NCBI GenBank assembly: GCA_965261185.1 | Contig: CBDHCN010000002.1 | Coordinates: forward strand, 2,272,813-2,336,812 | Reading direction: 5' to 3' | DNA: 64,000 nt | Source of the DNA: Candidatus Aldehydirespiratoraceae bacterium | GTDB taxonomy: Bacteria; Actinomycetota; Acidimicrobiia; Acidimicrobiales; Aldehydirespiratoraceae | Shown: positions 37,839 to 57,023 of the stretch, piece after piece | Layout: each line of letters opens with the position of its first letter | Position numbering within the stretch: position 1 is the stretch's first letter | Translations under genes and position numbers: made by a program | The notes under the pieces: generated by a model | What the model was told of the DNA's origin: nothing | Database searches by the model: none | What the model saw: the letters and a program-made list of their open reading frames with translations, nothing else

Positions 37839-40073
37839 TCAGTAAAAAACACCGGCGGCTTCGAGGCGGTTGAGTTCGTCGTCATCGATGCCAAGCACTT
37901 CACGGAGCACTTCGTGGGTGTGATGCCCGAGTGGAGGAGCAGACTGGGCGGTGCGCAGCACGGTGCGTGACATGCGGGTGGGATTGGCAGGCTGTTGCTC
38001 AGGCCCGTGCACCTCGTGTACCAGATCGACCATCAGTCCGCGTTCGTCGAGGTGTGGGTCTGCCAAGTGATCCAGCGGACCCATCACCGGCATCGCCGAC
38101 ACCCCGACAGCTTGGAGCAACTCGGCGGTCTCTGCAACAGAACGCAGCGAAGTCCACTGGCTCAGCCGCTCGTCAATGGCGTCGTGGGCGACGAATCGAG
38201 CTTCAACGTTGCCCAGGGTCTCATCGGCGGTCCAACCGGCGACGAGCTCAAGTGCCCGCCAAGCATCGTCGCTCTGCACCGTGATGGCGACCCAACTGTC
38301 GTCCTCTGAACCGGGATAGACACCTTGTGGGGCCATGTGGGGGTCGCGATTGGCAAGGTTCGTGGGGTTCACGCCAGTCTCGATTGCCTCCAGATAGAGC
38401 TCGCCGAGCAGGTACGCGGCGGCTTCGGTTTGGGCCATCTCCACGAAGGAACCCTCACCGGTCTGATAGCGGTGGTCGAGCGCAGACAAGACACCCACCG
38501 TCAACATCTTCGAGGCGATGTGGTCGGGATGATTGAGCGAGGTACCGCACGGATAAGGACCGTCCGGGTGACTCCATAACATATGAACACCCGCGAAACT
38601 TGAATTCAGCGGGCCGAAAGCCTTCATTTCCCCCATGGGACCCCCACGCCCGTAACCCTGCGAGGCCACATAGACCACGCTCGGATTGACCGCCGCGATG
38701 TCTGGATAATCGAGACCGAGTCTGGCCATCACCCCACCGCGGTTGTTCTCGGCGACCACATCGGCTGTGGCGCAGAGTTCTTTGGCCAGTCGCCGCCCGT
38801 CGGCTGTGGTGAGATCCAAAGCGATACCGCGACGACCTCTGCACTCCATGTTGAAACAAAAAGACCTGTCGAGGTCGGCAAGGCCGGCCGCGCGGAGCAC
38901 ATCAGGCTTCTTGCGGGACTCGATCTTGATGACATCAGCCCCGAGTTCTGAGAGCATCCAGCAAAGTTCGGGTACCACCGCGGCGATGCCGAACTCGATG
39001 ACACGCAACCCTTCGAGCAGCAAGCCGTGGTGCTTCGGTGAGTCGCGGAGAGGGGAAGCTGGTGCGGCTGCGGTTCTGGACGAGGGGGTGTCGGTTGGTG
39101 GAGGCTGGAACCTCCAGAGGCGGCCGGCCACTCCATCGACAAAAAAGCCTCGCTCGGTGGTCTGGGGATGGTTCACAAACTCCAGCGGATGCTGGATAGA
39201 ACCCAGCGGTAGGCCCAGCCGCAGCGACTCATCGAACAGTTCAGACCGATCGAGTTCGGCGAAGGACCGCGTGGCAACGTCGCGGATGACATCGGAGTTC
39301 TGCATGCGGTGAATCCGGTCGTTCCACTCGTCTCCAGCGACCTCGGTAGGCACACCACACAATTCAACGAACGCCTGCCAATCCGACTCGCTGCCAAACA
39401 CCATGCGTACATGGCCGTCGCGGCAGGGCACGACCAGATAAAACCCCTCAGCGTTGCGCCTCCCTTCAACCGGGAGGAAAGGGTTTACCGACAGGTACCC
39501 GGGGATAGCCACGCCCCACGGATACGTCCCGCCCAGTCCTGCTTCCTGCGAGCTCGTTTCGATCTGCTGTCCCAGTCCAGTCCGCCGCCGGTCCATCAGA
39601 GCCGCCACCGCGGCCATAGCGCCGTGGACCGAAGCACAGTCGTGGGCCAGGTATCCGGGAAGGGCGGTGGGGAATTGCGACCGATGACCTGTGGCGTGAA
39701 GTGCGCCGCTGGCGGCTTGGGCGGGGAGCGATTCCAGATACCAGTGCGAGCGCGGACCGCTCAGACCAAGATCGGTGAGGCTGACGATCACAAGATGGGG
39801 GTATTGGGCTCCGAGCGCGGGGCGGTCAATGTCAGCGCGGGGTCCACCGTTCTCGATGAACACGTCAACGAGCGGCAACAACTCCGAGAGTCCCTGGCCA
39901 GCTTCGGCGCTGACCTTGCCGTGGTTGCGGTAGCGGTCGGTGGCAGAGTCGTCGTCATGGTCGTTCAAGCGAGTGACATCCGCGCCGAGATCAGCCAGGA
40001 TCCGTCCGCATAGTGCTCCCCGCCGGTCGGTTGCATCAAGCATTTTGAACTCGGCGAGGGGGTGGTTGATCAC
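37839..40073 (-). CDS. tandem-domain family III CoA-transferase (two CaiB/BaiF modules in one polypeptide)
   Basis: The N-terminal module has DATDRRGALCGRILADLGADVTRL and the second has LRVIEFGIAAVVPELCWMLSELGADVIKIES. The start is uncertain: GTG at 40073 or ATG at 40043. The track ORF runs to 40283. Confidence 0.7.
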   Translation of the reverse strand: MINHPLAEFKMLDATDRRGALCGRILADLGADVTRLNDHDDDSATDRYRNHGKVSAEAGQGLSELLPLVDVFIENGGPRADIDRPALGAQYPHLVIVSLTDLGLSGPRSHWYLESLPAQAASGALHATGHRSQFPTALPGYLAHDCASVHGAMAAVAALMDRRRTGLGQQIETSSQEAGLGGTYPWGVAIPGYLSVNPFLPVEGRRNAEGFYLVVPCRDGHVRMVFGSESDWQAFVELCGVPTEVAGDEWNDRIHRMQNSDVIRDVATRSFAELDRSELFDESLRLGLPLGSIQHPLEFVNHPQTTERGFFVDGVAGRLWRFQPPPTDTPSSRTAAAPASPLRDSPKHHGLLLEGLRVIEFGIAAVVPELCWMLSELGADVIKIESRKKPDVLRAAGLADLDRSFCFNMECRGRRGIALDLTTADGRRLAKELCATADVVAENNRGGVMARLGLDYPDIAAVNPSVVYVASQGYGRGGPMGEMKAFGPLNSSFAGVHMLWSHPDGPYPCGTSLNHPDHIASKMLTVGVLSALDHRYQTGEGSFVEMAQTEAAAYLLGELYLEAIETGVNPTNLANRDPHMAPQGVYPGSEDDSWVAITVQSDDAWRALELVAGWTADETLGNVEARFVAHDAIDERLSQWTSLRSVAETAELLQAVGVSAMPVMGPLDHLADPHLDERGLMVDLVHEVHGPEQQPANPTRMSRTVLRTAQSAPPLGHHTHEVLREVLGIDDDELNRLEAAGVFY

Positions 40074-40305
40074 CGTTGGAGTCTCGCGTAGAGCGCTTGA
40101 AGGCACAACGTCATGAGCATTCTCGCTACGCTTACCGGCGATGTCTGTGCCGCGGCATTTCCCCAGCAAGATCGATGAACCCAAGGCGTATGTTTCTGCG
40201 CCGCGTCGTTCGGGGAGTTGGTTGGCGAATCGGCCGGGTGAGGTGGTTGGCGCTGCGCAGCCTTCGGGACCAGCGGTGGGCAACCAAGGTCCCGATCAGG
40301 GCTAT

Positions 40306-47951: not shown

Positions 47952-49202
47952 TCACAGCGAAGGGGTTTCTGTCGGGGCGATACGGTTTCGCCAGAGCACG
48001 CCGAAGCCCATTGAGATGAGCACCAGCACACCCATCAGCGACATGATCGGGCGGATGCCATAGATGTCGGCCAGTTTGCCGAAGGGGAGCGAGGCGAGCC
48101 CGAAACCGGTGAAGCTCAACATGATCAGGCTCTGGACCCGTCCGTGGTATTCGACATCGGCGATGGTGAGCGCCAAAGAATTGTTGAGCGCCTGGAACGC
48201 CGCGGAACCTCCGCCCACGAACACAATCACGACGACCGCAGCCCAGTATTGCGGAACCACCGCGAAGAGGATCAACGAGATACCGAAGACGATGGCGGCT
48301 TGGATCTGCAGCGACGGTAACCGTGATTGTTTGACACTGGCCAAGGAGATGCTGGCAATGACTGCGCCGATAGCTGCCGAGGTCGTGAGCAGGCCCAATG
48401 CCCACGCGTCAAGTTCGTAGACGTCTTCCACCAACCCAGGGAGAAAGGTGATGTGGGGGAAGCCGAACATCACGATCAGTAACGAGACAACCAGTAATCT
48501 TGCCAACTCCGGACGTTTGCGAACATAAGCGAAACCGTCGGCCAGGTCGCCGAAGGCTGAACGGCGGGATCTGTACTTGGGCGCACCGGCAGGGAGTTTC
48601 ACGGTGGCGACGACTGACAAGGCAGAGAGCGTGGCGCCCACGTAATAAACACCACCGACCCCGATCACCGCGATGCCGATCAATATTCCGCCGACCGCCG
48701 GCCCCAAGACTCGGGTCATCTGAACACTGGCGTTGCTCAACAAGATGGCGTTGGTGAGCGAGTCACGTTCGACGAGGTCTGCGGTCATCGCCAGTCGCGA
48801 TGGCCCCAACAACGACATACCTAGACCTTGGACTCCACCTGCGGCGACAAGCATCCAGTATTGGATGGTTCCCGTTGAGATGGCGACCGCTATCAAGAAC
48901 GCCGCGGCGGTCATCGCCGACTGCGCGAACATCAAGATGGAGCGCTTACCTATTCGATCGGCGAGCACACCCGACGCGGGGATTGCCACCAAGCTGGTGA
49001 CTCCGAAAGCAAACACCACCCCACCCAGCGCGGTGTTGCTTCCGGTGAGGTCATAGGCGAGCCAACCCCGGGCGATCTGTTGGGTCTGTGAGGCGAGGAA
49101 AATGAACATCCCTCCCCACCACAACATGCGGTATTCGGGAATCTGCAGCGATGCGAACCGTGCTGTCTTCGCTTCGGTATCGGGTACCCCGGTTTCAGAC
49201 AT
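47952..49202 (-). CDS. MFS transporter
   Basis: About 12 hydrophobic segments and an MFS loop motif (GVLADRIGKR). I chose the ATG at 49202. The track ORF runs to 49244. Confidence 0.8.
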   Translation of the reverse strand: MSETGVPDTEAKTARFASLQIPEYRMLWWGGMFIFLASQTQQIARGWLAYDLTGSNTALGGVVFAFGVTSLVAIPASGVLADRIGKRSILMFAQSAMTAAAFLIAVAISTGTIQYWMLVAAGGVQGLGMSLLGPSRLAMTADLVERDSLTNAILLSNASVQMTRVLGPAVGGILIGIAVIGVGGVYYVGATLSALSVVATVKLPAGAPKYRSRRSAFGDLADGFAYVRKRPELARLLVVSLLIVMFGFPHITFLPGLVEDVYELDAWALGLLTTSAAIGAVIASISLASVKQSRLPSLQIQAAIVFGISLILFAVVPQYWAAVVVIVFVGGGSAAFQALNNSLALTIADVEYHGRVQSLIMLSFTGFGLASLPFGKLADIYGIRPIMSLMGVLVLISMGFGVLWRNRIAPTETPSL

Positions 49203-49329
49203 TGAGGCGACGGTATCGCTTCGGCGGACCGCTCTACACATCACGGGTTTTGCTCATCACTGGCACCACCTGGCTGTGATGTCATCATGCGTATATGTTT
49301 CGCCTGTTCGGCAGAGTCGATTGTGAGCT

Positions 49330-50253
49330 GTGATGACCGATGCCGTTGAACACGGATCCAGTCAGGTCGCCAAAGCGGTTGAGCTTGGTTCATACCCAAC
49401 AATTGTCTTGACCACGTTCGCCGGGTTTTGGGCTCTGACGGCTAGCGGAGTGCATGTGACACCCGCGTCTTACGGAGCGGGCGTGCTGGCCGCTGCTTTG
49501 GTGACGGTTCATGAGATCAAGTGGCCCCACCGCCAACAGTGGCATCCGCAGGGGCGTGAGATCCGTGCTGATATGGCGTTCATGGTGGTGGTTCAGATGA
49601 CGTTGCCTTACCTGTTGTCGATCGGCGTAACAATCGGCATTGCCGACCGGTTGAAGGCCGAGGGCTTCACCGTCGATGGTCTTTGGCCGCACCAACTGCC
49701 GGTCGTCGTGCAATCGATATTGATGTTGTTGCTGGCCGATCTAGCTCGCTACTGGTTACACCGAGCGTTCCATCGCTTTGGGTTCATGTGGCGTTACCAC
49801 GCCGTGCATCATTCGCCGCACCGGCTTTACTGGCTCAACGTTGCTCGATTCCATCCGTTTGAGAAAGCTGTTCAGTTCTCGTTCGATGCGCTGCCATTTG
49901 TCTTGGTGGGCGTCTCGAGAGAGGTGCTCGCCGCGTACTTCGTGTTCTATGCGGTCAATGGCTTCTTTCAACACTCCAACTGCGCCGTGCGCCTGGGTTT
50001 TCTCAACTACGTCATCAGCGGACCGGAACTGCACCGTTGGCACCATTCGGAGTTCCCTGAGGAATCCAACACCAATTTCGGCAACAACTTGATTGTCTGG
50101 GACTGGATTTTCGGGACACGCTTTCTACCGGCGGAGCGCCAAGTCGGCAATCTTGGATTGATCAACAGGAAATATCCGAGCGGATTCTGGCAGCAAATGG
50201 GCACACCGTTCGTTGCTGGTTTGGACTCAGAAACTGGGGTTGGCTCGAGGTGA
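49330..50253 (+). CDS. fatty acid hydroxylase / sterol desaturase superfamily membrane di-iron enzyme
   Basis: Three histidine boxes (HRAFH, HAVHH, HRWHH) plus N-terminal transmembrane helices. Confidence 0.75.
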   Translation: MMTDAVEHGSSQVAKAVELGSYPTIVLTTFAGFWALTASGVHVTPASYGAGVLAAALVTVHEIKWPHRQQWHPQGREIRADMAFMVVVQMTLPYLLSIGVTIGIADRLKAEGFTVDGLWPHQLPVVVQSILMLLLADLARYWLHRAFHRFGFMWRYHAVHHSPHRLYWLNVARFHPFEKAVQFSFDALPFVLVGVSREVLAAYFVFYAVNGFFQHSNCAVRLGFLNYVISGPELHRWHHSEFPEESNTNFGNNLIVWDWIFGTRFLPAERQVGNLGLINRKYPSGFWQQMGTPFVAGLDSETGVGSR

Positions 50254-51953
50254 GGAGCAGGGTCGGCTACCTAGGGTTGAGGACTGCTTTGACGCTTACG
50301 CAACGACCGCGTTTGCGGGCGTTGTTGCAGTCTGCGAAGGAACCTGACGAGACGCAACTGAGGGTGCTCAGAGGAATCCTGGCTAGCAATGCCTCGACTA
50401 CTTTCGGGGCGAAACACGGATTTTCGGACATCAACAGCATTGCCGAATATCGCAAAGCCGTACCGGTCCAGGACTATGAGGACCTGCGTGAGTTCGTAGA
50501 GCGCCAGGAACTGACCGGCGAGCCGTGCCTTACCGCAGAGCGACCAGTGTTTTATAATCGTACGAGCGGCACTGTCACCGCTGCCAAGAACATCCCGGTC
50601 ACAGAGGCAGGCCTTGAACGACTTCGGGATCGTCAACGCTTGGGAACCTACGTCTGGTCGGTTGGCGCGCCAATACTGTCGGGCAAGGTTTTCGCGGTTG
50701 GCGGGGCGGCGGTGGAGGGCCATTTGCAAGGTGGAACTCCGTACGGATCCGCGTCTGGGAAGCTGCATGAGAACCAGCCGCGGCTATTGCAAGGCCGCTA
50801 TGTGTTGCCTTCGGCGCTGAACGCTGTGGCCGATTATCAAGCCCGCTATCTGGCGATGGCGATCCTGGGTGTGTCGGAACCGGCGGTCACCTGCATCGCC
50901 ACGGCAAACCCTTCGACGCTCACACAGCTGTTGTCGCTGATCAACCAGCATGCTGAGCTAGTGCTGGAGGCGGTGGCTACGGGACGCTTGCCCGACGAGG
51001 TAGCCGCCAGCGTCGGCGAGGCGGTATGCCTTCTAAACCTGCGGCCTCGGCGCCCGCGCTCCCTGAGGCTGCAGAAGCGTTTGGATGCTAACGGGCTGCT
51101 CACCTATGCCGACTTCTGGCCCAACCTGGCAGGTGTCGTCACCTGGACCGGTGGGAGTTGTGGGGTTGCGTTGGGCAGCCTGAAGCCGACATTGCCCGAG
51201 CGTTGCCTTGTGATCGAGGTTGGCTGGGTGGCTAGCGAGTTGCAAGGAACCATCAATGTCGATGCCCGCAACAACACCTGTCTGCCGTTACTGGAGGACA
51301 CCTTCTTCGAGTTCGTCGAAAGGGATGTTTCTGCTGCCCAACGCAACGAGATCGGATTTCGAGACACCGAGATGTTGACACTTGGCGAACTAGAGACCGG
51401 GCGTGACTACAACGTGGTGGTGACCACCTCCGACGGACTCTATCGCTACGACATGAGCGACATTGTTCGTGTGACCGGTTGGTTGAACGCCACGCCGACG
51501 CTCGAGTTTGTCCAAAAAGCCAGTGGCATCACCAGCATTACCGGAGAGAAACTATATGAGACGCAGGTGTTGGGCGCGGTACCACCCGCGCTCGCTGAGC
51601 ACCAGCTTCCCTCAAGTTTTTTTGTCATGCTGGCGGACGTAGAAACCGCGCGATACACCTTGTACGTCGAACCTGCTCGGACCTCCGATAATGCCGACGA
51701 TGCTGCCGCAGTCGCGTCCCTTGCGCGCGACATTGACAAGCGTCTGCGCTCCGGCAATATCGAATACGACGCCAAGCGAGCCAGCGGAAGGCTTGAATCG
51801 CTGCGAATACTGCGATTGCGCCCCGGCACAGGTGCTGCCTACCGACTCCAACAAGTGGCTGCCGGTCAGCGCGACATGCAGTTCAAGTACCTGCATGTGC
51901 AATACAGCCACGACTGTCCTTTCAATTTTGACGCCTACGTCGAACACCCATGA
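50250..51953 (+). CDS. GH3 family (acyl-acid amido synthetase-like) adenylating enzyme
   Basis: 567 aa. N-terminal FGAKHGFSDINSIAEYRKAVPVQDYEDL and NRTSGTVTAAKNIPVT resemble bacterial GH3 auxin-responsive promoter family proteins. GTGA overlap upstream. Confidence 0.65.
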   Translation: MRSRVGYLGLRTALTLTQRPRLRALLQSAKEPDETQLRVLRGILASNASTTFGAKHGFSDINSIAEYRKAVPVQDYEDLREFVERQELTGEPCLTAERPVFYNRTSGTVTAAKNIPVTEAGLERLRDRQRLGTYVWSVGAPILSGKVFAVGGAAVEGHLQGGTPYGSASGKLHENQPRLLQGRYVLPSALNAVADYQARYLAMAILGVSEPAVTCIATANPSTLTQLLSLINQHAELVLEAVATGRLPDEVAASVGEAVCLLNLRPRRPRSLRLQKRLDANGLLTYADFWPNLAGVVTWTGGSCGVALGSLKPTLPERCLVIEVGWVASELQGTINVDARNNTCLPLLEDTFFEFVERDVSAAQRNEIGFRDTEMLTLGELETGRDYNVVVTTSDGLYRYDMSDIVRVTGWLNATPTLEFVQKASGITSITGEKLYETQVLGAVPPALAEHQLPSSFFVMLADVETARYTLYVEPARTSDNADDAAAVASLARDIDKRLRSGNIEYDAKRASGRLESLRILRLRPGTGAAYRLQQVAAGQRDMQFKYLHVQYSHDCPFNFDAYVEHP

Positions 51954-53143
51954 TGTCCTCGCCCGAATCCCTCGTACCTATCAAAAGGTTGTCGGTGATG
52001 TCGTTCCCGGTGCCGTTCAAGACGGTGGTCCGTCATGCATCGGCCAGTCATCGGCGGGCTCAGAACTTGATAGTGCAGGTGGTTGGAGCCGACGGCCAGA
52101 TCGGCTGGGGAGAGGGTTGTCCCCGTCAATATGTGACCGGTGAGACAATCGACAGCGCCTTGGAGTTCATAGATCAACGCGCAGATGCCTTGTTGACAGA
52201 GATCACCGGTGCAGGGCCTCTGCGGGCTTGGATCAAAGCTCACCGTGAAGAGATTGACCGCAACCCGGCGGCCTTCTGCGCGCTCGAGACAGCTGTGTTG
52301 GACCTGCTCGGCAAGACACAGAAGCGGTCACTTGAGGACATTCTCGAAGTTGCGAAGCCCGTCGGAGAGTTCCGATACACCGCGGTACTGTCCGATCTTC
52401 CCTGGCCGGTGTATCGCTGGCAATGCGGGCGGTACCGCCGTGCCGGTTTCGAAGACTTCAAGGTCAAATTGTCCGGTGATTTGCGCCGCGACCAGCGCAA
52501 GCTGAGGGTCCTCGCAAACCCGATAGCTCGGTCCTCAGCCGCGGCGTCTGGGGTGCGGATTCGGGTAGATGCCAACAACCTTTGGGAGTCGGCCGATGAG
52601 TGCATTGAGCACATAGGGGCGTTAGACGTTGACCTTTTTTCGGTAGAAGAACCGCTTCGGCCGGGAGACTTCAACGGCATGCTCGGTGTGGCGGAACAGT
52701 GCTCAACGCGGATCGTGCTCGACGAGAGCCTTTTGCGAGCTGAGCACCTAGACGCCTTGAGCGGCGATCCCGCCATCTGGATCGCCAACGTTCGCGTATC
52801 GAAGATGGGCGGCATCATCCGCGCGCTGGAGGTGACCCAGAAAGCAGCGGCTTCGGGTGTCGGCGTGATCGTCGGTTGCCAGGTCGGAGAGACAAGTATC
52901 CTCTCGCGCGCTGCGCTCACGGTGATGCAGTCGATCAAGCCCCGGTTGTTGGGCGCTGAAGGAGCCTTCGGCACGCTTCTTTTGCGACGGGATCTCACGT
53001 CGCGCAGCATCATGTTTGGACCGTCCGGTGTCCTTGCAGTTGAAGGAGTGCTTGCCTCCGACAGTGGTAACCCTGGTGGCTTCGGGTTGGAGATTTCCGA
53101 GCGAGCGAAGCGCCAACTGGTCTCGCTAAGGAGCTATCCGTGA
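51950..53143 (+). CDS. enolase-superfamily enzyme, MLE subgroup (racemase/epimerase/cycloisomerase-like)
   Basis: KxK motif (FKVKLSG), metal ligands in RVDANNLW / VEEPL / VLDESL, and a second catalytic Lys in RVSKMGG. ATGA overlap upstream. Confidence 0.7.
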   Translation: MMSSPESLVPIKRLSVMSFPVPFKTVVRHASASHRRAQNLIVQVVGADGQIGWGEGCPRQYVTGETIDSALEFIDQRADALLTEITGAGPLRAWIKAHREEIDRNPAAFCALETAVLDLLGKTQKRSLEDILEVAKPVGEFRYTAVLSDLPWPVYRWQCGRYRRAGFEDFKVKLSGDLRRDQRKLRVLANPIARSSAAASGVRIRVDANNLWESADECIEHIGALDVDLFSVEEPLRPGDFNGMLGVAEQCSTRIVLDESLLRAEHLDALSGDPAIWIANVRVSKMGGIIRALEVTQKAAASGVGVIVGCQVGETSILSRAALTVMQSIKPRLLGAEGAFGTLLLRRDLTSRSIMFGPSGVLAVEGVLASDSGNPGGFGLEISERAKRQLVSLRSYP

Positions 53144-53628
53144 CCGCCCGCAGCGGTTCGGGCTTCGACCGATCGCCATGGATTACTCCTCGTGGAGCTG
53201 GGCGGAGCGGTGGGAACCGCCGTTTGGCATGGGTTGTAGCGTTGCTGACCATCGCTTTCGCGCTGAGAGTGACCGGGCAGGTCGTCCAGCGCTGGGCACC
53301 GGTGTCGTTTTTGCCTGCTTTTGATGACTGGCAGGGAAGTGGTCTTCCCTATCCCGTGTTGCTGGCATTTCAGATCGCGATTGTTGTGCTTGCAGTGGCC
53401 GTGACTCTCCGCATGTCCAGGGGTAGCCGCCTGATCGGCAAGCGTTGGATAGTGCCAGTGTTGTTGGCTGGCATTGTGTACTTCACGGTGATGTTCGCCC
53501 GGTTGATACTTGGCTTCACCGCGTTGTCCGGCATCACCTGGTTCAACCGGCCGATCCCTTCGGCGTTCCACCTGGTACTCGCGACCCAGCTAATGCTCGT
53601 CGCTGCCTACCAGTACCACAGGGACTAA
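53140..53628 (+). CDS. small integral membrane protein
   Basis: 162 aa with about 4 hydrophobic helices. GTGA overlap with the upstream gene. Confidence 0.55.
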   Translation: MTARSGSGFDRSPWITPRGAGRSGGNRRLAWVVALLTIAFALRVTGQVVQRWAPVSFLPAFDDWQGSGLPYPVLLAFQIAIVVLAVAVTLRMSRGSRLIGKRWIVPVLLAGIVYFTVMFARLILGFTALSGITWFNRPIPSAFHLVLATQLMLVAAYQYHRD

Positions 53629-53851
53629 CCTCTGGTCCCCCTGTTCCCCATTGTTGTCGGCGCCGGTGCCGAGGATAACGTTTCTGCGTGTAGGAGCGGT
53701 TGTAAAAACCAGACCTCAACCATCGACGAGTCCGCCTACGAAACGGTTCCCCTGTCCACCTCGCCTTGACCCAGAAACGTGCCTGATGGCGGTGACAGGG
53801 GACCTGATTTTGGTCCATGTGTTGTGGGTTTGATTCCCCGAAAATGGGAGG

Positions 53852-54139
53852 ATGATCACGATGAAGAGGAAACGTCATACACCGGAGCAGGCTGTGCGGA
53901 CGCTGAGTGAGGGCGAGAAGCGTCTGAACGCGGGTGAGGAACTGGGTTCGGTGTTGAAGCAGTTGGAGATTGCTGAGTCGAGGTGGAACCGGTGGCGCAG
54001 TAGCTATGGCGGGATGATGGCCGCTGAGGTGAAGGAGCTCAAGGAGCTGCGTGTGGAGAACGCCAGGTTGAAGAAGTTGTTGGCTGAGGCTGAGTTGGAC
54101 AAGGCGATGCTCAAGGACCTTGCTGGGGGAAACTGGTGA
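53852..54139 (+). CDS. IS3-family transposase OrfA (HTH / leucine-zipper part)
   Basis: 95 aa. KRHTPEQAVRTL...LEIAESRWNRWRSSYGG...ELKELRVENARLKKLLAEAELDKAMLKD is typical of IS3 OrfA. Confidence 0.8.
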   Translation: MITMKRKRHTPEQAVRTLSEGEKRLNAGEELGSVLKQLEIAESRWNRWRSSYGGMMAAEVKELKELRVENARLKKLLAEAELDKAMLKDLAGGNW

Positions 54140-56435: not shown

Positions 56436-57023
56436 GTGAAGGAAGACGTACTTGAGCAGATCGTTGATGACTATCTGCAGCACCTTGGTTACTTCACACA
56501 GCACAACATCAGGTTCCGCCCCCGACATGATCACCCGGACTACGACTCGCAGCAGGACTCAGTCCGCTCCGATGTGGATGTCGTCGGGATCAATCCACAG
56601 AAGCGGGGGTTGGATCGCGTGATGGTGGTGAGTTGTAAGTCTTGGCAGTCAAGGTTCGACGCGACCAGTCGACTCGCGCAGATGAAGGGCGAGAAGAAGA
56701 ACCCGAAACGGGAGACTTGGCGTCATCACCGTGAGTTGTGGGTCCCGAAATGGAGCGAGGCTTTCAGAGCCGCGATCAAGGACTGCACCGGTAGGGGAGC
56801 GTTCAGTTACCGCATTGCCGTGACTCGACTCAGAGGCGACACCGCAGATTGGGGTCGCGATCCGACCATCGCGGAGAACTTGCCGGGTTGTTCAATCGGA
56901 TTTCTCACGCTCGAAGAGATGTGGCGCGATTTGGTCGCTGGTCTTGGCACTGCACCCGCTAGTAGCGAGATCGGTCGTTTGGCGCAACTCTTGAAAGCCG
57001 CTGGTCTGGCGGGAAATGAGTAG
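56436..57023 (+). CDS. hypothetical protein, possibly restriction-endonuclease-like fold
   Basis: 195 aa. The N-terminal E..IVDDYL...GYF...SDVDVVGI...VMVVSCKSW pattern is reminiscent of PD-(D/E)xK cores but is not canonical. Confidence 0.45.
   Translation: MKEDVLEQIVDDYLQHLGYFTQHNIRFRPRHDHPDYDSQQDSVRSDVDVVGINPQKRGLDRVMVVSCKSWQSRFDATSRLAQMKGEKKNPKRETWRHHRELWVPKWSEAFRAAIKDCTGRGAFSYRIAVTRLRGDTADWGRDPTIAENLPGCSIGFLTLEEMWRDLVAGLGTAPASSEIGRLAQLLKAAGLAGNE

Follow-up and report, generated by a model that had tools for sequence, protein, structure and literature searches.

The four genes at positions 49330 to 53628 of the window (the whole stretch of 64,000 nucleotides that was analysed) probably form one autonomous module for the synthesis and tailoring of a lipoamino acid, an N-acyl amino acid associated with the membrane; we put the probability of this reading at roughly 55%. 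The route is uncharacterised. The cassette consists of the following genes:

49330..50253, + strand: hydroxylase gene, 307 aa, first of the four cassette ORFs
50250..51953, + strand: GH3 gene (P0002), 567 aa, second cassette ORF
51950..53143, + strand: MLE-type enolase-superfamily gene (P0003), 397 aa, third cassette ORF
53140..53628, + strand: gene for a protein with four transmembrane helices (4-TM protein), 162 aa, fourth cassette ORF

The original prediction described four ORFs that overlap by 4 nt at each junction, and the same coordinates were recovered in both the ORF list and the sequence, with GTGA at 50250, ATGA at 51950 and GTGA at 53140. The 4-TM gene, which starts with GTG, has a strong SD sequence (AAGGAG, 53128-53133) set 6 nt ahead of that codon. 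The hydroxylase gene may start with the ATG at 49333 instead of the GTG at 49330. A simple scan for sigma-70 promoters and terminators gave zero signal above shuffles.

This four-gene arrangement is conserved far beyond chance. For neighbour counts we used a set of 80 metagenome loci, where the hydroxylase gene immediately preceded GH3 in 64 of 66 loci and the MLE gene immediately followed it in 61 of 62. The same neighbours are kept in all 11 genome loci and in nearly all of the metagenome loci, and some of the genes are naturally fused, which bears out the expectation that the four would be co-conserved. Fifteen loci carry a hydroxylase::GH3 fusion, and in seven (locus L010 and six metagenome loci) the 4-TM protein is fused to the N-terminus of the hydroxylase. 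These fusions would place GH3 at the membrane beside the hydroxylase. The 4-TM gene precedes the hydroxylase gene in 36 loci, and in seven it follows the MLE gene, as it does here. No additional flanking family recurred in more than 8 of 95 loci and the module therefore seems to be self-contained. A GH3-MLE pair at 30-40% identity also occurs in another actinobacterial family, in a different gene order and with no hydroxylase. Because the pair persists in this form, the MLE step appears to be tied to the product or substrate of GH3 and not to hydroxylation.

From its sequence, P0002 is predicted to be a complete, three-domain GH3 acyl-acid amido synthetase, which would catalyze ATP-dependent adenylation and then amide formation. 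It is the only GH3 in this genome. The earlier GH3 assignment held in a profile search, where the N, M and C domains of Pfam scored 160, 72 and 44 bits, each above its cut-off. To our knowledge, OlsH (2025) is the sole bacterial GH3 to have been characterised. The nucleotide-binding motifs I (T105-SGTVTAAK113), II (GWVASE, 325-330) and III (G396-LYRYDMSD404) of P0002 are invariant in our alignment of homologues (A1) and agree with published motif definitions (PMC12493201). OlsH uses a free fatty acid, ATP and Mg2+ to make N-acyl-ornithine (PMC12493201). Like our cassette, the OlsH-OlsG-OlsI system of Singulisphaera acidiphila has a bacterial GH3 in a compact operon with lipid-tailoring enzymes, and the likeness would extend to the ATP-dependent coupling of a free fatty acid to an amino acid through an amide bond, with no need for CoA or ACP (PMC12493201). 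By contrast, the cassette has no OlsI α/β-hydrolase and no OlsG methyltransferase, whereas its OlsE-like hydroxylase, 4-TM partner and enolase-superfamily enzyme have no equivalents in the OlsH operon. P0002 scored 78.8 bits with the NCBIfam OlsH model against a cut-off of 620, and the match is confined to the N-terminal half.

The product of 49330..50253 is predicted to be an OlsE-like member of the FA_hydroxylase family, a membrane hydroxylase with di-iron His boxes. It matched Pfam PF04116 (FA_hydroxylase) at 105 bits and its N-terminus contains four TM helices. Homologues show no variation in any of its His boxes (HRAFH, HAVHH, QHSN and HRWHH), in line with the original call of a His-box di-iron enzyme. 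Its sole NCBIfam match at E <= 0.01 is to the OlsE model (NF052566; 171.7 bits, 2e-50, approximately full length), with the cut-off of 475 not reached. There are two FA_hydroxylase genes in the genome and only the cassette copy matches this model. Enzymes of this family have lipids embedded in membranes as their substrates. OlsE of Rhizobium tropici and Agrobacterium belongs to the same FA_hydroxylase superfamily, likewise has di-iron His boxes and sits in the membrane; it adds a hydroxyl group at C4 of the head group of ornithine lipids (PMC12971839). OlsE acts on lipids from OlsBA; the cassette hydroxylase differs in being coupled to GH3 and to the 4-TM protein, with fusions in other lineages.

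The fourth gene had been predicted to encode a membrane protein. The four TM helices agree with this, but the generic label falls short since the fusions identify the product as a partner of the hydroxylase. It is a small 4-TM protein of an undescribed family. Pfam and PDB sequence searches gave no match, and a fold search with the AF2 model (pLDDT 89, pTM 0.78, four TM helices) gave no significant match. Homologues in our alignment (A2) are 29-53% identical and have invariant polar residues at R43, Q47, Q50, Q78, Y114, R121 and H144. The lipid nature that we propose for the substrate of the module rests on the membrane location of this protein and the hydroxylase, and on the fusions.

An alternative that we consider improbable is that the acid joined to the amino acid is not a lipid but, for example, an aromatic or hormone-like one of the kind used by plant GH3s, and that the conjugate serves signalling, detoxification or secondary metabolism, with the hydroxylase modifying that hydrophobic molecule. 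P0002 matches plant IAA- and JA-amido synthetase structures at 2.7e-24 to 6.7e-11 and its motif III is nearer to the plant motif than the OlsH motif is. Plant GH3s (OsGH3.8, 7DK8; AtGH3.15; JAR1) share its three domains and motifs I-III, and the match to OsGH3.8 covers approximately the whole query length, the other plant matches being shorter. The 'Poriferi-' names of some MAGs, if they mean sponge hosts, also fit this idea, as does the marine origin of other MAGs. However, plant GH3s are soluble, act on hormones and have neither operon partners nor a fused membrane hydroxylase. A GH3 fused to a polytopic membrane enzyme fits a membrane-resident substrate, FA_hydroxylase-family enzymes work on membrane-embedded lipids, and the only NCBIfam match of the hydroxylase is to a lipid head-group hydroxylase. 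In addition, aromatic-acid pathway genes do not recur in the flanks.

At the other extreme, the cassette could be an orthologous OlsH/OlsE pathway leading to a hydroxylated ornithine lipid, the 3-OH of which is acylated by a housekeeping acyltransferase encoded at some other place in the genome. OlsE and OlsH are the best NCBIfam matches, no OlsB-like N-acyltransferase was found in the genome, and E. coli extracts had some O-acyltransferase activity with OlsH products (PMC12493201). Even so, we regard this as very improbable. Neither score comes near its equivalog cut-off (171.7 vs 475; 78.8 vs 620), no OlsI-like hydrolase is linked to the cassette, whether in this window or at the other loci of the hydroxylase type that were examined, and the OlsH operon has no enolase-superfamily gene, which is near-obligatory here (61/62). 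Acidimicrobiales is also absent from the orders listed with OlsH homologues (PMC12971839). No O-acyltransferase, whether OlsI- or OlsA-like, is linked to the cassette, so a two-tailed product of the ornithine-lipid type is unsupported. The low model scores also count against the lipoamino-acid reading itself.

A lipoamino acid nonetheless appears to be the best reading of the product because the hydroxylase is OlsE-like and the one characterised bacterial GH3 makes N-acyl-ornithine. The absence of an OlsB-like N-acyltransferase from this genome also speaks for it. The idea of an N-acyl amino acid or lipoamino acid was already part of the original prediction; it now has a precedent in OlsH (PMC12493201) and in the hydroxylase, but the racemase role that went with it is weakened. 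We infer the substrates, step order and product as follows. Based on family chemistry and OlsH, GH3 would adenylate a carboxylic acid in its free form, in the most likely case a fatty acid, and then use it to acylate an amino acid at the α-amino group. The OlsE-like hydroxylase and its 4-TM partner would then hydroxylate the conjugate within the membrane, on the head group as with OlsE or on the chain. The last and least certain step would be carried out by the MLE-type enzyme.

P0003 is an enolase-superfamily protein whose fold is that of the dipeptide-epimerase/NSAR group within the MLE subgroup. It matched MR_MLE_C (85 bits) and MR_MLE_N (23.5 bits) in Pfam, and 2p88 (6e-52), 3jva (8e-52) and 1jpm (2e-46) in a PDB profile search. 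The enzymes compared were the dipeptide epimerases 3JVA, 1JPM/1TKK and 3RIT, the N-succinyl-Arg/Lys racemase 2P88, and the NSAR/OSBS enzymes 1SJA and 2ZC8. With Foldseek, the AF2 model (pLDDT 89.4, pTM 0.90) gave TM-scores of 0.73-0.84 against dipeptide epimerases and N-acyl-amino-acid racemases. Shared with these enzymes are the β2 KxK motif (K171-x-K173), the metal ligands D207, E233 and D258, and a second-shell cation at +3; E314 is also conserved. All of the enzymes nearest in fold have substrates with a free α-carboxylate, either N-acylated amino acids or dipeptides, and the N-acylated amino acids used by MLE-subgroup racemases and epimerases are the type of product that GH3 makes. P0003 differs from these racemases in its genetic tie to GH3 and in having Arg282 where β6 canonically ends in a catalytic Lys, with Lys285 at +3. 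This pattern was found in 88/88 GH3-linked homologues. R282 aligned with the catalytic Lys in all five PDB alignments compared, and strand 277-282 of the model terminates at it. The D-L-D motif after β8 of 3RIT, which we take to bind the dipeptide ammonium group, is G-A-E in P0003, inside a conserved EGAFGT block. Every MLE-subgroup racemase known to us uses the terminal Lys of β6 as one of its two bases. The invariant Arg282 therefore appears to argue against a textbook two-Lys racemase, and because the substitution occurs in 88/88 homologues, racemase activity is not to be assumed. Of the racemase/epimerase role that had been considered, the fold stands and the activity does not follow.

Pathways that acylate and then racemise an amino acid, such as the N-succinyl-amino-acid racemase pathways and DgcN/DgcA (N-acetyl-D-Glu racemase), likewise couple N-acylation to an enolase-superfamily enzyme acting at Cα. 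They use GNAT acyltransferases with succinyl- or acetyl-CoA in catabolic or salvage routes, whereas in the cassette an ATP-dependent GH3 would acylate and the setting is a membrane hydroxylase. The best NCBIfam match of P0003 is DgcA, where its score of 80 bits compares with a cut-off of 400.

In our proposed route, the MLE-type enzyme would hold the free α-carboxylate of the conjugate via Mg2+ and Lys173 would take the α-proton. The conjugate would then be epimerised to the D-form, with Arg282 or Lys285 serving the opposite face, or else undergo β-elimination with a single base. We think it rather unlikely that the same module contains a lyase or dehydratase with OSBS-like chemistry, in which Lys173 takes the proton, a β-leaving group is lost and Arg282 merely stabilises the enolate, the product being an N-acyl dehydroamino acid (enamide) or its breakdown product. 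The Arg in 88/88 homologues and weak NCBIfam matches to OSBS and cis-3-hydroxy-L-proline dehydratase models are consistent with this. However, the closest sequences and folds are epimerases and racemases, and there are enzymes, such as galactarate dehydratase II and pectate lyases, in which Arg can take the acid/base role. Also, a GH3-MLE pair occurs with no hydroxylase and the leaving group would therefore need to come from the amino acid itself. OSBS provides a precedent for the lyase since its β6 Lys makes a cation-π contact and has no acid/base role, the β2 Lys acting alone, but P0003 keeps K285, and a second-shell cation at +3 is linked to two-base 1,1-proton transfer (10.1101/2022.03.03.481873).

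The cassette is accessory in this genome. It sits at a variable spot with an MFS gene on one side and a lost monooxygenase gene on the other:

49245..49329, no strand: left cassette boundary, an 85-bp spacer separating the hydroxylase gene from the divergent MFS gene
53629..53703, no strand: right end of the segment common to the relatives L001 and L002 (blastn and tblastn)
53704..53764, + strand: 3' remnant of a flavin monooxygenase (BVMO-like) gene, 61 bp, last 20 codons

When the window was compared with the same-genus genome G271 by blastn, similarity stopped at 49244. Promoter-like sites in the spacer were not above chance. In L001 and L002, which carry the cassette, similarity reaches 53700 and an intact monooxygenase gene comes next. 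The gene is also intact in G271 and is deleted here. The remnant is 93% identical to G271:C1:2259686-2259746 (blastn), and 20/20 residues match the G271 protein in tblastn. This remnant marks the resident locus that holds the inserted cassette.

Within Acidimicrobiia the module is rare and its distribution patchy: no GH3 relative was found in the same-genus genome or in 400 sampled members of the class. Named records among the cassette relatives include Alpha- and Gammaproteobacteria MAGs, and the module is not actinobacterial in character. Several related MAGs bear 'Poriferi-' names, perhaps a sign of sponge hosts, and others are of marine origin. Together, the four genes are a self-contained, horizontally acquired cassette that is found across hundreds of uncultured bacteria.

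Four overlapping ORFs had been described between 49330 and 53628 in the original prediction. Our ORF calls reproduced their coordinates exactly, and the junctions GTGA, ATGA and GTGA are present in the sequence. The four genes, here called the cassette, are as follows.

Cassette genes (ORF calls, window positions)
49330–50253, + strand: P0001, OlsE-like hydroxylase, 307 aa
50250–51953, + strand: P0002, GH3 enzyme, 567 aa
51950–53143, + strand: P0003, MLE-type enolase-superfamily enzyme, 397 aa
53140–53628, + strand: P0004, protein with four transmembrane helices (4-TM), 162 aa

A strong AAGGAG Shine-Dalgarno sequence lies 6 nt before the start of P0004, and an ATG at 49333 may be an alternative start for P0001. 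The Pfam search assigned FA_hydroxylase to P0001, the GH3 N, M and C domains to P0002 and both MR_MLE_C and MR_MLE_N to P0003; it found no Pfam family for P0004. Scanning 49100–53900 gave one promoter-like site, which is on the wrong strand (shuffle mean 1.3), and seven terminator-like sites (shuffle mean 4.7).

The assignment of P0002 to GH3, on which the original prediction depended, held up in the profile search. The N, central and C domains scored 160.4, 71.8 and 44.1 bits, all above the Pfam cut-off of 23.6, and plant GH3 structures were matched with E values down to 2.7e-24, the match to OsGH3.8 being nearly full-length. The nucleotide-binding motifs of GH3 enzymes are SSGTSxGxxK, YGSSE and GLYRYRLGD in AtGH3.11 numbering (PMC12493201). 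In P0002 these correspond to TSGTVTAAK (105–113), GWVASE (325–330), which aligns to YASSE of OsGH3.8, and GLYRYDMSD (396–404). In the GH3 alignment T105, G107, T108 and K113 of motif I, G325, A328, S329 and E330 of motif II, and G396, L397, Y398, R399, Y400, D401, M402 and D404 of motif III are invariant, with S106 nearly so. YGSASG (165–170) was considered as motif II and rejected because the aligned motif is GWVASE. P0002 is the only GH3 gene in this genome (4.28 Mb in 2 contigs, 95.7% complete), whose nearest genome records belong to the order Acidimicrobiales, family Candidatus Aldehydirespiratoraceae.

The sole characterised bacterial GH3 enzyme is OlsH, for which adenylation of a free carboxylic acid and ligation have been demonstrated with fatty acids and ornithine (PMC12493201). 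When intact E. coli was used, OlsH formed no product. P0002 scored below the OlsH equivalog cut-off (78.8 vs 620 bits; NCBIfam NF052613), and the match was limited to residues 20–229. An OlsI-type α/β-hydrolase O-acyltransferase is absent from the window cassette and from beside the cassette in three Pfam-annotated neighbourhoods. There are thousands of bacterial GH3 homologues beyond OlsH, with unknown functions according to the same authors (PMC12493201), and this is also said of those outside planctomycetes (PMC12493201; PMC12971839). The Acidimicrobiales are not among the orders that a 2026 review names as having OlsH homologues (PMC12971839). Full-text literature searches returned no report on the combination of a GH3 enzyme, an enolase-superfamily enzyme and a hydroxylase; the nearest were the OlsH paper and this review (PMC12493201; PMC12971839).

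By both sequence profile and fold, P0003 lies nearest to dipeptide epimerases, N-succinyl-Arg/Lys racemase and N-acyl-amino-acid racemases (best figures 6e-52 to 2p88 and TM 0.73–0.84 to epimerase/racemase folds). K171, K173, D207, E233 and D258 are invariant among 89–90 homologues, so the KxK and D/E/D elements of the MLE subgroup are present; E314 is also invariant among homologues. In the AF2 model (pLDDT 89.4, pTM 0.90) the strands 169–173, 203–207 and 231–233 end at K173, D207 and E233, and D258 comes straight after strand 254–257. In dipeptide epimerases a D-x-D after β8 binds the N-terminal ammonium group of the dipeptide. L-D-L-D-G of 3rit aligns to L-G-A-E-G of P0003, which thus lacks the D-x-D of dipeptide epimerases. 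G-A-E here belongs to the conserved EGAFGT block, of which E337, G338 and G341 are invariant in an alignment of 44 sequences.

The end of β6 departs from the canonical active site. MLE-subgroup enzymes have the pattern N-[IV]-K-x-x-[KR]-x-G-G at this point, where the first Lys is the catalytic acid/base (K263 in AmyNSAR, K268 in BsDE) and a second-shell cation follows at +3 (R266 in AmyNSAR, K271 in BsDE) (10.1101/2022.03.03.481873). P0003 reads N-V-R282-V-S-K285-M-G-G, and the canonical catalytic Lys is absent. The segment aligns without gaps to N-I-K-L-M-K-x-G-G of 2p88, 3jva, 1jpm and 3r0k and to N-L-K-L-S-K-S-A-G of 3q45; 1jpm is the BsDE chain, whose lysines are K268 and K271 in the preprint's numbering. 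Strand β6 of the model (277–282) ends at R282, and Arg occupies this site in all 88 GH3-linked homologues that cover it. We considered whether K285 of RVSKMGG could be the catalytic β6 Lys; the K263/R266 and K268/K271 register, the alignments and the model rule this out. K285 is the +3 second-shell cation and is invariant, as expected for the second shell of a two-base racemase. Judged by sequence, P0003 is therefore no textbook two-lysine racemase.

P0001 scored 105.3 bits against PF04116 (cut-off 31), and its His boxes HRAFH, HAVHH and HRWHH, which follow the HxxxH, HxxHH, HxxHH pattern of the FA_hydroxylase di-iron superfamily, are invariant in 11 homologues. Its sole NCBIfam match was OlsE (NF052566), the ornithine-lipid head-group hydroxylase (E = 2e-50, model positions 10–284 of 293), at 171.7 bits, short of the equivalog cut-off of 475. 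The second FA_hydroxylase-family gene of the genome (contig 2, 993670–994062; 75 bits to PF04116), taken as a specificity control, gave no match to the OlsE model. The resemblance of P0001 to OlsE thus appears specific, though it is below the cut-off.

The 4-TM protein belongs to a real and diverse family (29–53% identity in its alignment), in which R43, Q47, Q50, Q78, Y114, R121 and H144 are invariant polar residues inside predicted helices. The AF2 model of P0004 (pLDDT 89) is a four-helix membrane fold, and a Foldseek search with it against the PDB found no significant structural neighbour (best E 0.28). Profile searches of the family gave no matches in the PDB and nothing consistent in Pfam at E ≤ 1, where any one Pfam family was matched by at most 3 of 16 members.

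The cassette proved to be conserved well outside this genome. Among related loci from species-representative genomes, its genes were kept in 11 of 11 as far as the contigs reach, with all four intact in eight; one of the 11 is an alphaproteobacterial MAG with a GH3 identity of 45%. Metagenome contigs were also scanned with the GH3 alignment, which yielded 319 related stretches, and the best 80 (32–86% identity) were kept. In these best 80 of 319, the hydroxylase gene is directly upstream of GH3 in 64 of the 66 loci with enough room, and the MLE-type gene is directly downstream in 61 of 62. The position of the 4-TM gene varies within the same best 80 of 319: 36 loci have it upstream of the hydroxylase, 7 have it after the MLE gene, which is the order in the window, 4 have it elsewhere nearby, and in 9 it was undetected. 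These genome and metagenome counts remove the possibility, foreseen in the original prediction, that the genes are not co-conserved. In two relatives that are 82–86% identical (L004 2737–2916 and L018 8915–9094), similarity in the 4-TM gene is lost after ~48 codons and the ORF closes at 59 aa; in both, the fourth gene seems to have been disrupted or replaced.

Natural fusions join several of these genes. A hydroxylase::GH3 fusion occurs in 15 loci, for example as an 867-aa ORF in metagenome locus L087 (5050–7653), and a 4TM::hydroxylase fusion occurs in six metagenome loci and the genome locus L010. Placed N-terminal to the hydroxylase, the 4-TM protein contributes an even number of helices, so that topology would be kept; these fusions mark it as a putative hydroxylase subunit or partner. 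At another locus (L079 569–2749) a 726-aa ORF carries the 4-TM homologue at its N-terminal end; the hydroxylase::GH3 fusion of that locus follows ~2 kb downstream.

For 95 loci we also clustered every other ORF up to 4 kb away from the cassette, leaving the clusters themselves unannotated. This search for an additional conserved partner, such as an O-acyltransferase or a transporter, found no flanking ORF family in more than 8 of the 95 loci, and the sets of loci behind the recurring clusters overlap. Together, the co-conservation, the fusions and the lack of a recurring flank family indicate a self-contained module of three to four genes. CoA_transf_3 genes occur just upstream of the cassette in two loci (L012 and L013). 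Since this family is not recurrent in the flank clustering, their proximity to cassettes is probably a coincidence. In the window an 814-aa ORF at 37839–40283 on the – strand looks, from its translation, like a tandem family-III CoA-transferase of the CaiB/BaiF type.

A second arrangement helps to separate the core of the module from its accessories. In a sample of 400 Actinomycetota genomes, GH3 relatives at 29–37% identity were found in 13 other genomes, nine of them from one family. All eight loci of that family with sufficient flank have an MLE-type gene immediately upstream of GH3, and it bears the same R..K signature as P0003. One locus was looked at in detail for gene order (related loci, L113–L120).

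Hydroxylase-less module variant
L122 5677–10543, – strand: α/β-hydrolase (Hydrolase_4), MLE, GH3 and Zn-dependent dehydrogenase, in this order and tightly spaced

A search without a positive control found no P0001-like hydroxylase anywhere in five such genomes. The GH3–MLE pairing without a hydroxylase points to GH3–MLE as the conserved core, with a third partner that would vary between the hydroxylase plus 4-TM protein and an α/β-hydrolase. The MLE step would then be independent of hydroxylation and use the product or substrate of GH3.

In the genome under study the cassette is an accessory trait, missing at the same locus in a same-genus relative (G271). There the flanks are joined without it: after the MFS gene come a ~500-aa flavin monooxygenase gene and the counterparts of window position 56994 onward, in this order. 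In two relatives that are 96–97% identical (L001 and L002), the cassette follows MFS and is itself followed by an intact monooxygenase. The following features adjoin the cassette in the window.

Features downstream of the cassette (window positions)
53704–53764: monooxygenase remnant, 61 bp, the last 20 codons of a flavin/Baeyer-Villiger-type gene that is intact in G271, L001 and L002
53765–56993: block of ~3.2 kb with IS3-type orfA/orfB, a 386-aa IS481-type transposase gene and most of a 195-aa orphan gene (56436–57023)

The remainder of the monooxygenase gene was lost in a ~1.48-kb deletion that abuts the end of the cassette segment. G271, in which positions 2259746 and 2259747 adjoin, lacks the block, and the IS3- and IS481-type transposase ORFs of the block agree with a separate earlier claim of nested insertion sequences. 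We considered the divergent upstream MFS gene (47952–49244) as part of the module and rejected it because it is present at the same locus in G271, which has no cassette; its association with the cassette is limited to near-identical relatives. The MFS gene is thus resident and lies outside the module. No GH3 relative was found in 400 other sampled Acidimicrobiia genomes, among them two congeners and one member of the same family. The cassette showed no compositional signal of transfer; its GC of 0.589 and GC3 of 0.68–0.71 are the same as in neighbouring genes. The parsimonious reading of the gene orders is that the cassette entered the MFS/monooxygenase intergenic region by horizontal transfer, with a clean loss in G271 as a possible alternative.

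We propose the following chain of reactions as the best supported. The GH3 enzyme would adenylate a free carboxylic acid and join it to an amino acid. To our knowledge, every MLE-subgroup enzyme needs a free α-carboxylate to bind Mg2+ and acidify the α-proton; the GH3 product would retain one, usable by the MLE-type enzyme. The conjugate would then partition into the membrane and be oxidised by the OlsE-like hydroxylase and its 4-TM partner, and the hydroxylase::GH3 fusions support a direct hand-over between these enzymes. From the membrane enzymes and the fusions we infer that the acyl group is a lipid. Because no O-acyltransferase is linked to the cassette, the product is more likely a single-chain ('lyso'-type) lipoamino acid than an acyloxyacyl compound of the ornithine-lipid type. 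For the MLE step we narrowly and tentatively favour epimerisation, in which Arg282 or Lys285 would serve the opposite face. One-base β-elimination seems only a little less likely, and we would put some other reaction at about the same level as elimination.

A more far-reaching reading, to which we give a probability of roughly 0.35, is that GH3 and the Arg-variant MLE enzyme form an unrecognised two-enzyme core, accompanied by the OlsE-like hydroxylase and 4-TM protein or by an α/β-hydrolase. This core would make a new bacterial class of lipoamino acids remodelled at the α-carbon after acylation (D-configured or α,β-dehydro N-acyl amino acids). Arg would replace the canonical β6 Lys, and the membrane di-iron hydroxylase would have the 4-TM protein as a new obligate subunit.

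The module is real, tightly organised and widely distributed, a variant of the GH3-dependent N-acyl-amino-acid/aminolipid theme with a non-canonical enolase-superfamily active site. With 319 related stretches in one metagenome scan, the cassette represents a large, compact and coherent bacterial GH3 sub-family, whose partners set out a pathway that can be tested, with amide formation, Cα chemistry and membrane hydroxylation. Working this pathway out would provide functions for four protein families together, among them the unannotated 4-TM family and the enolase-superfamily branch with the non-canonical active site. It could possibly also provide ATP-only (CoA-free) biocatalysts for N-acyl amino acid surfactants, and the phosphorus-free amphiphiles of marine and probably sponge-associated bacteria would gain a new class.
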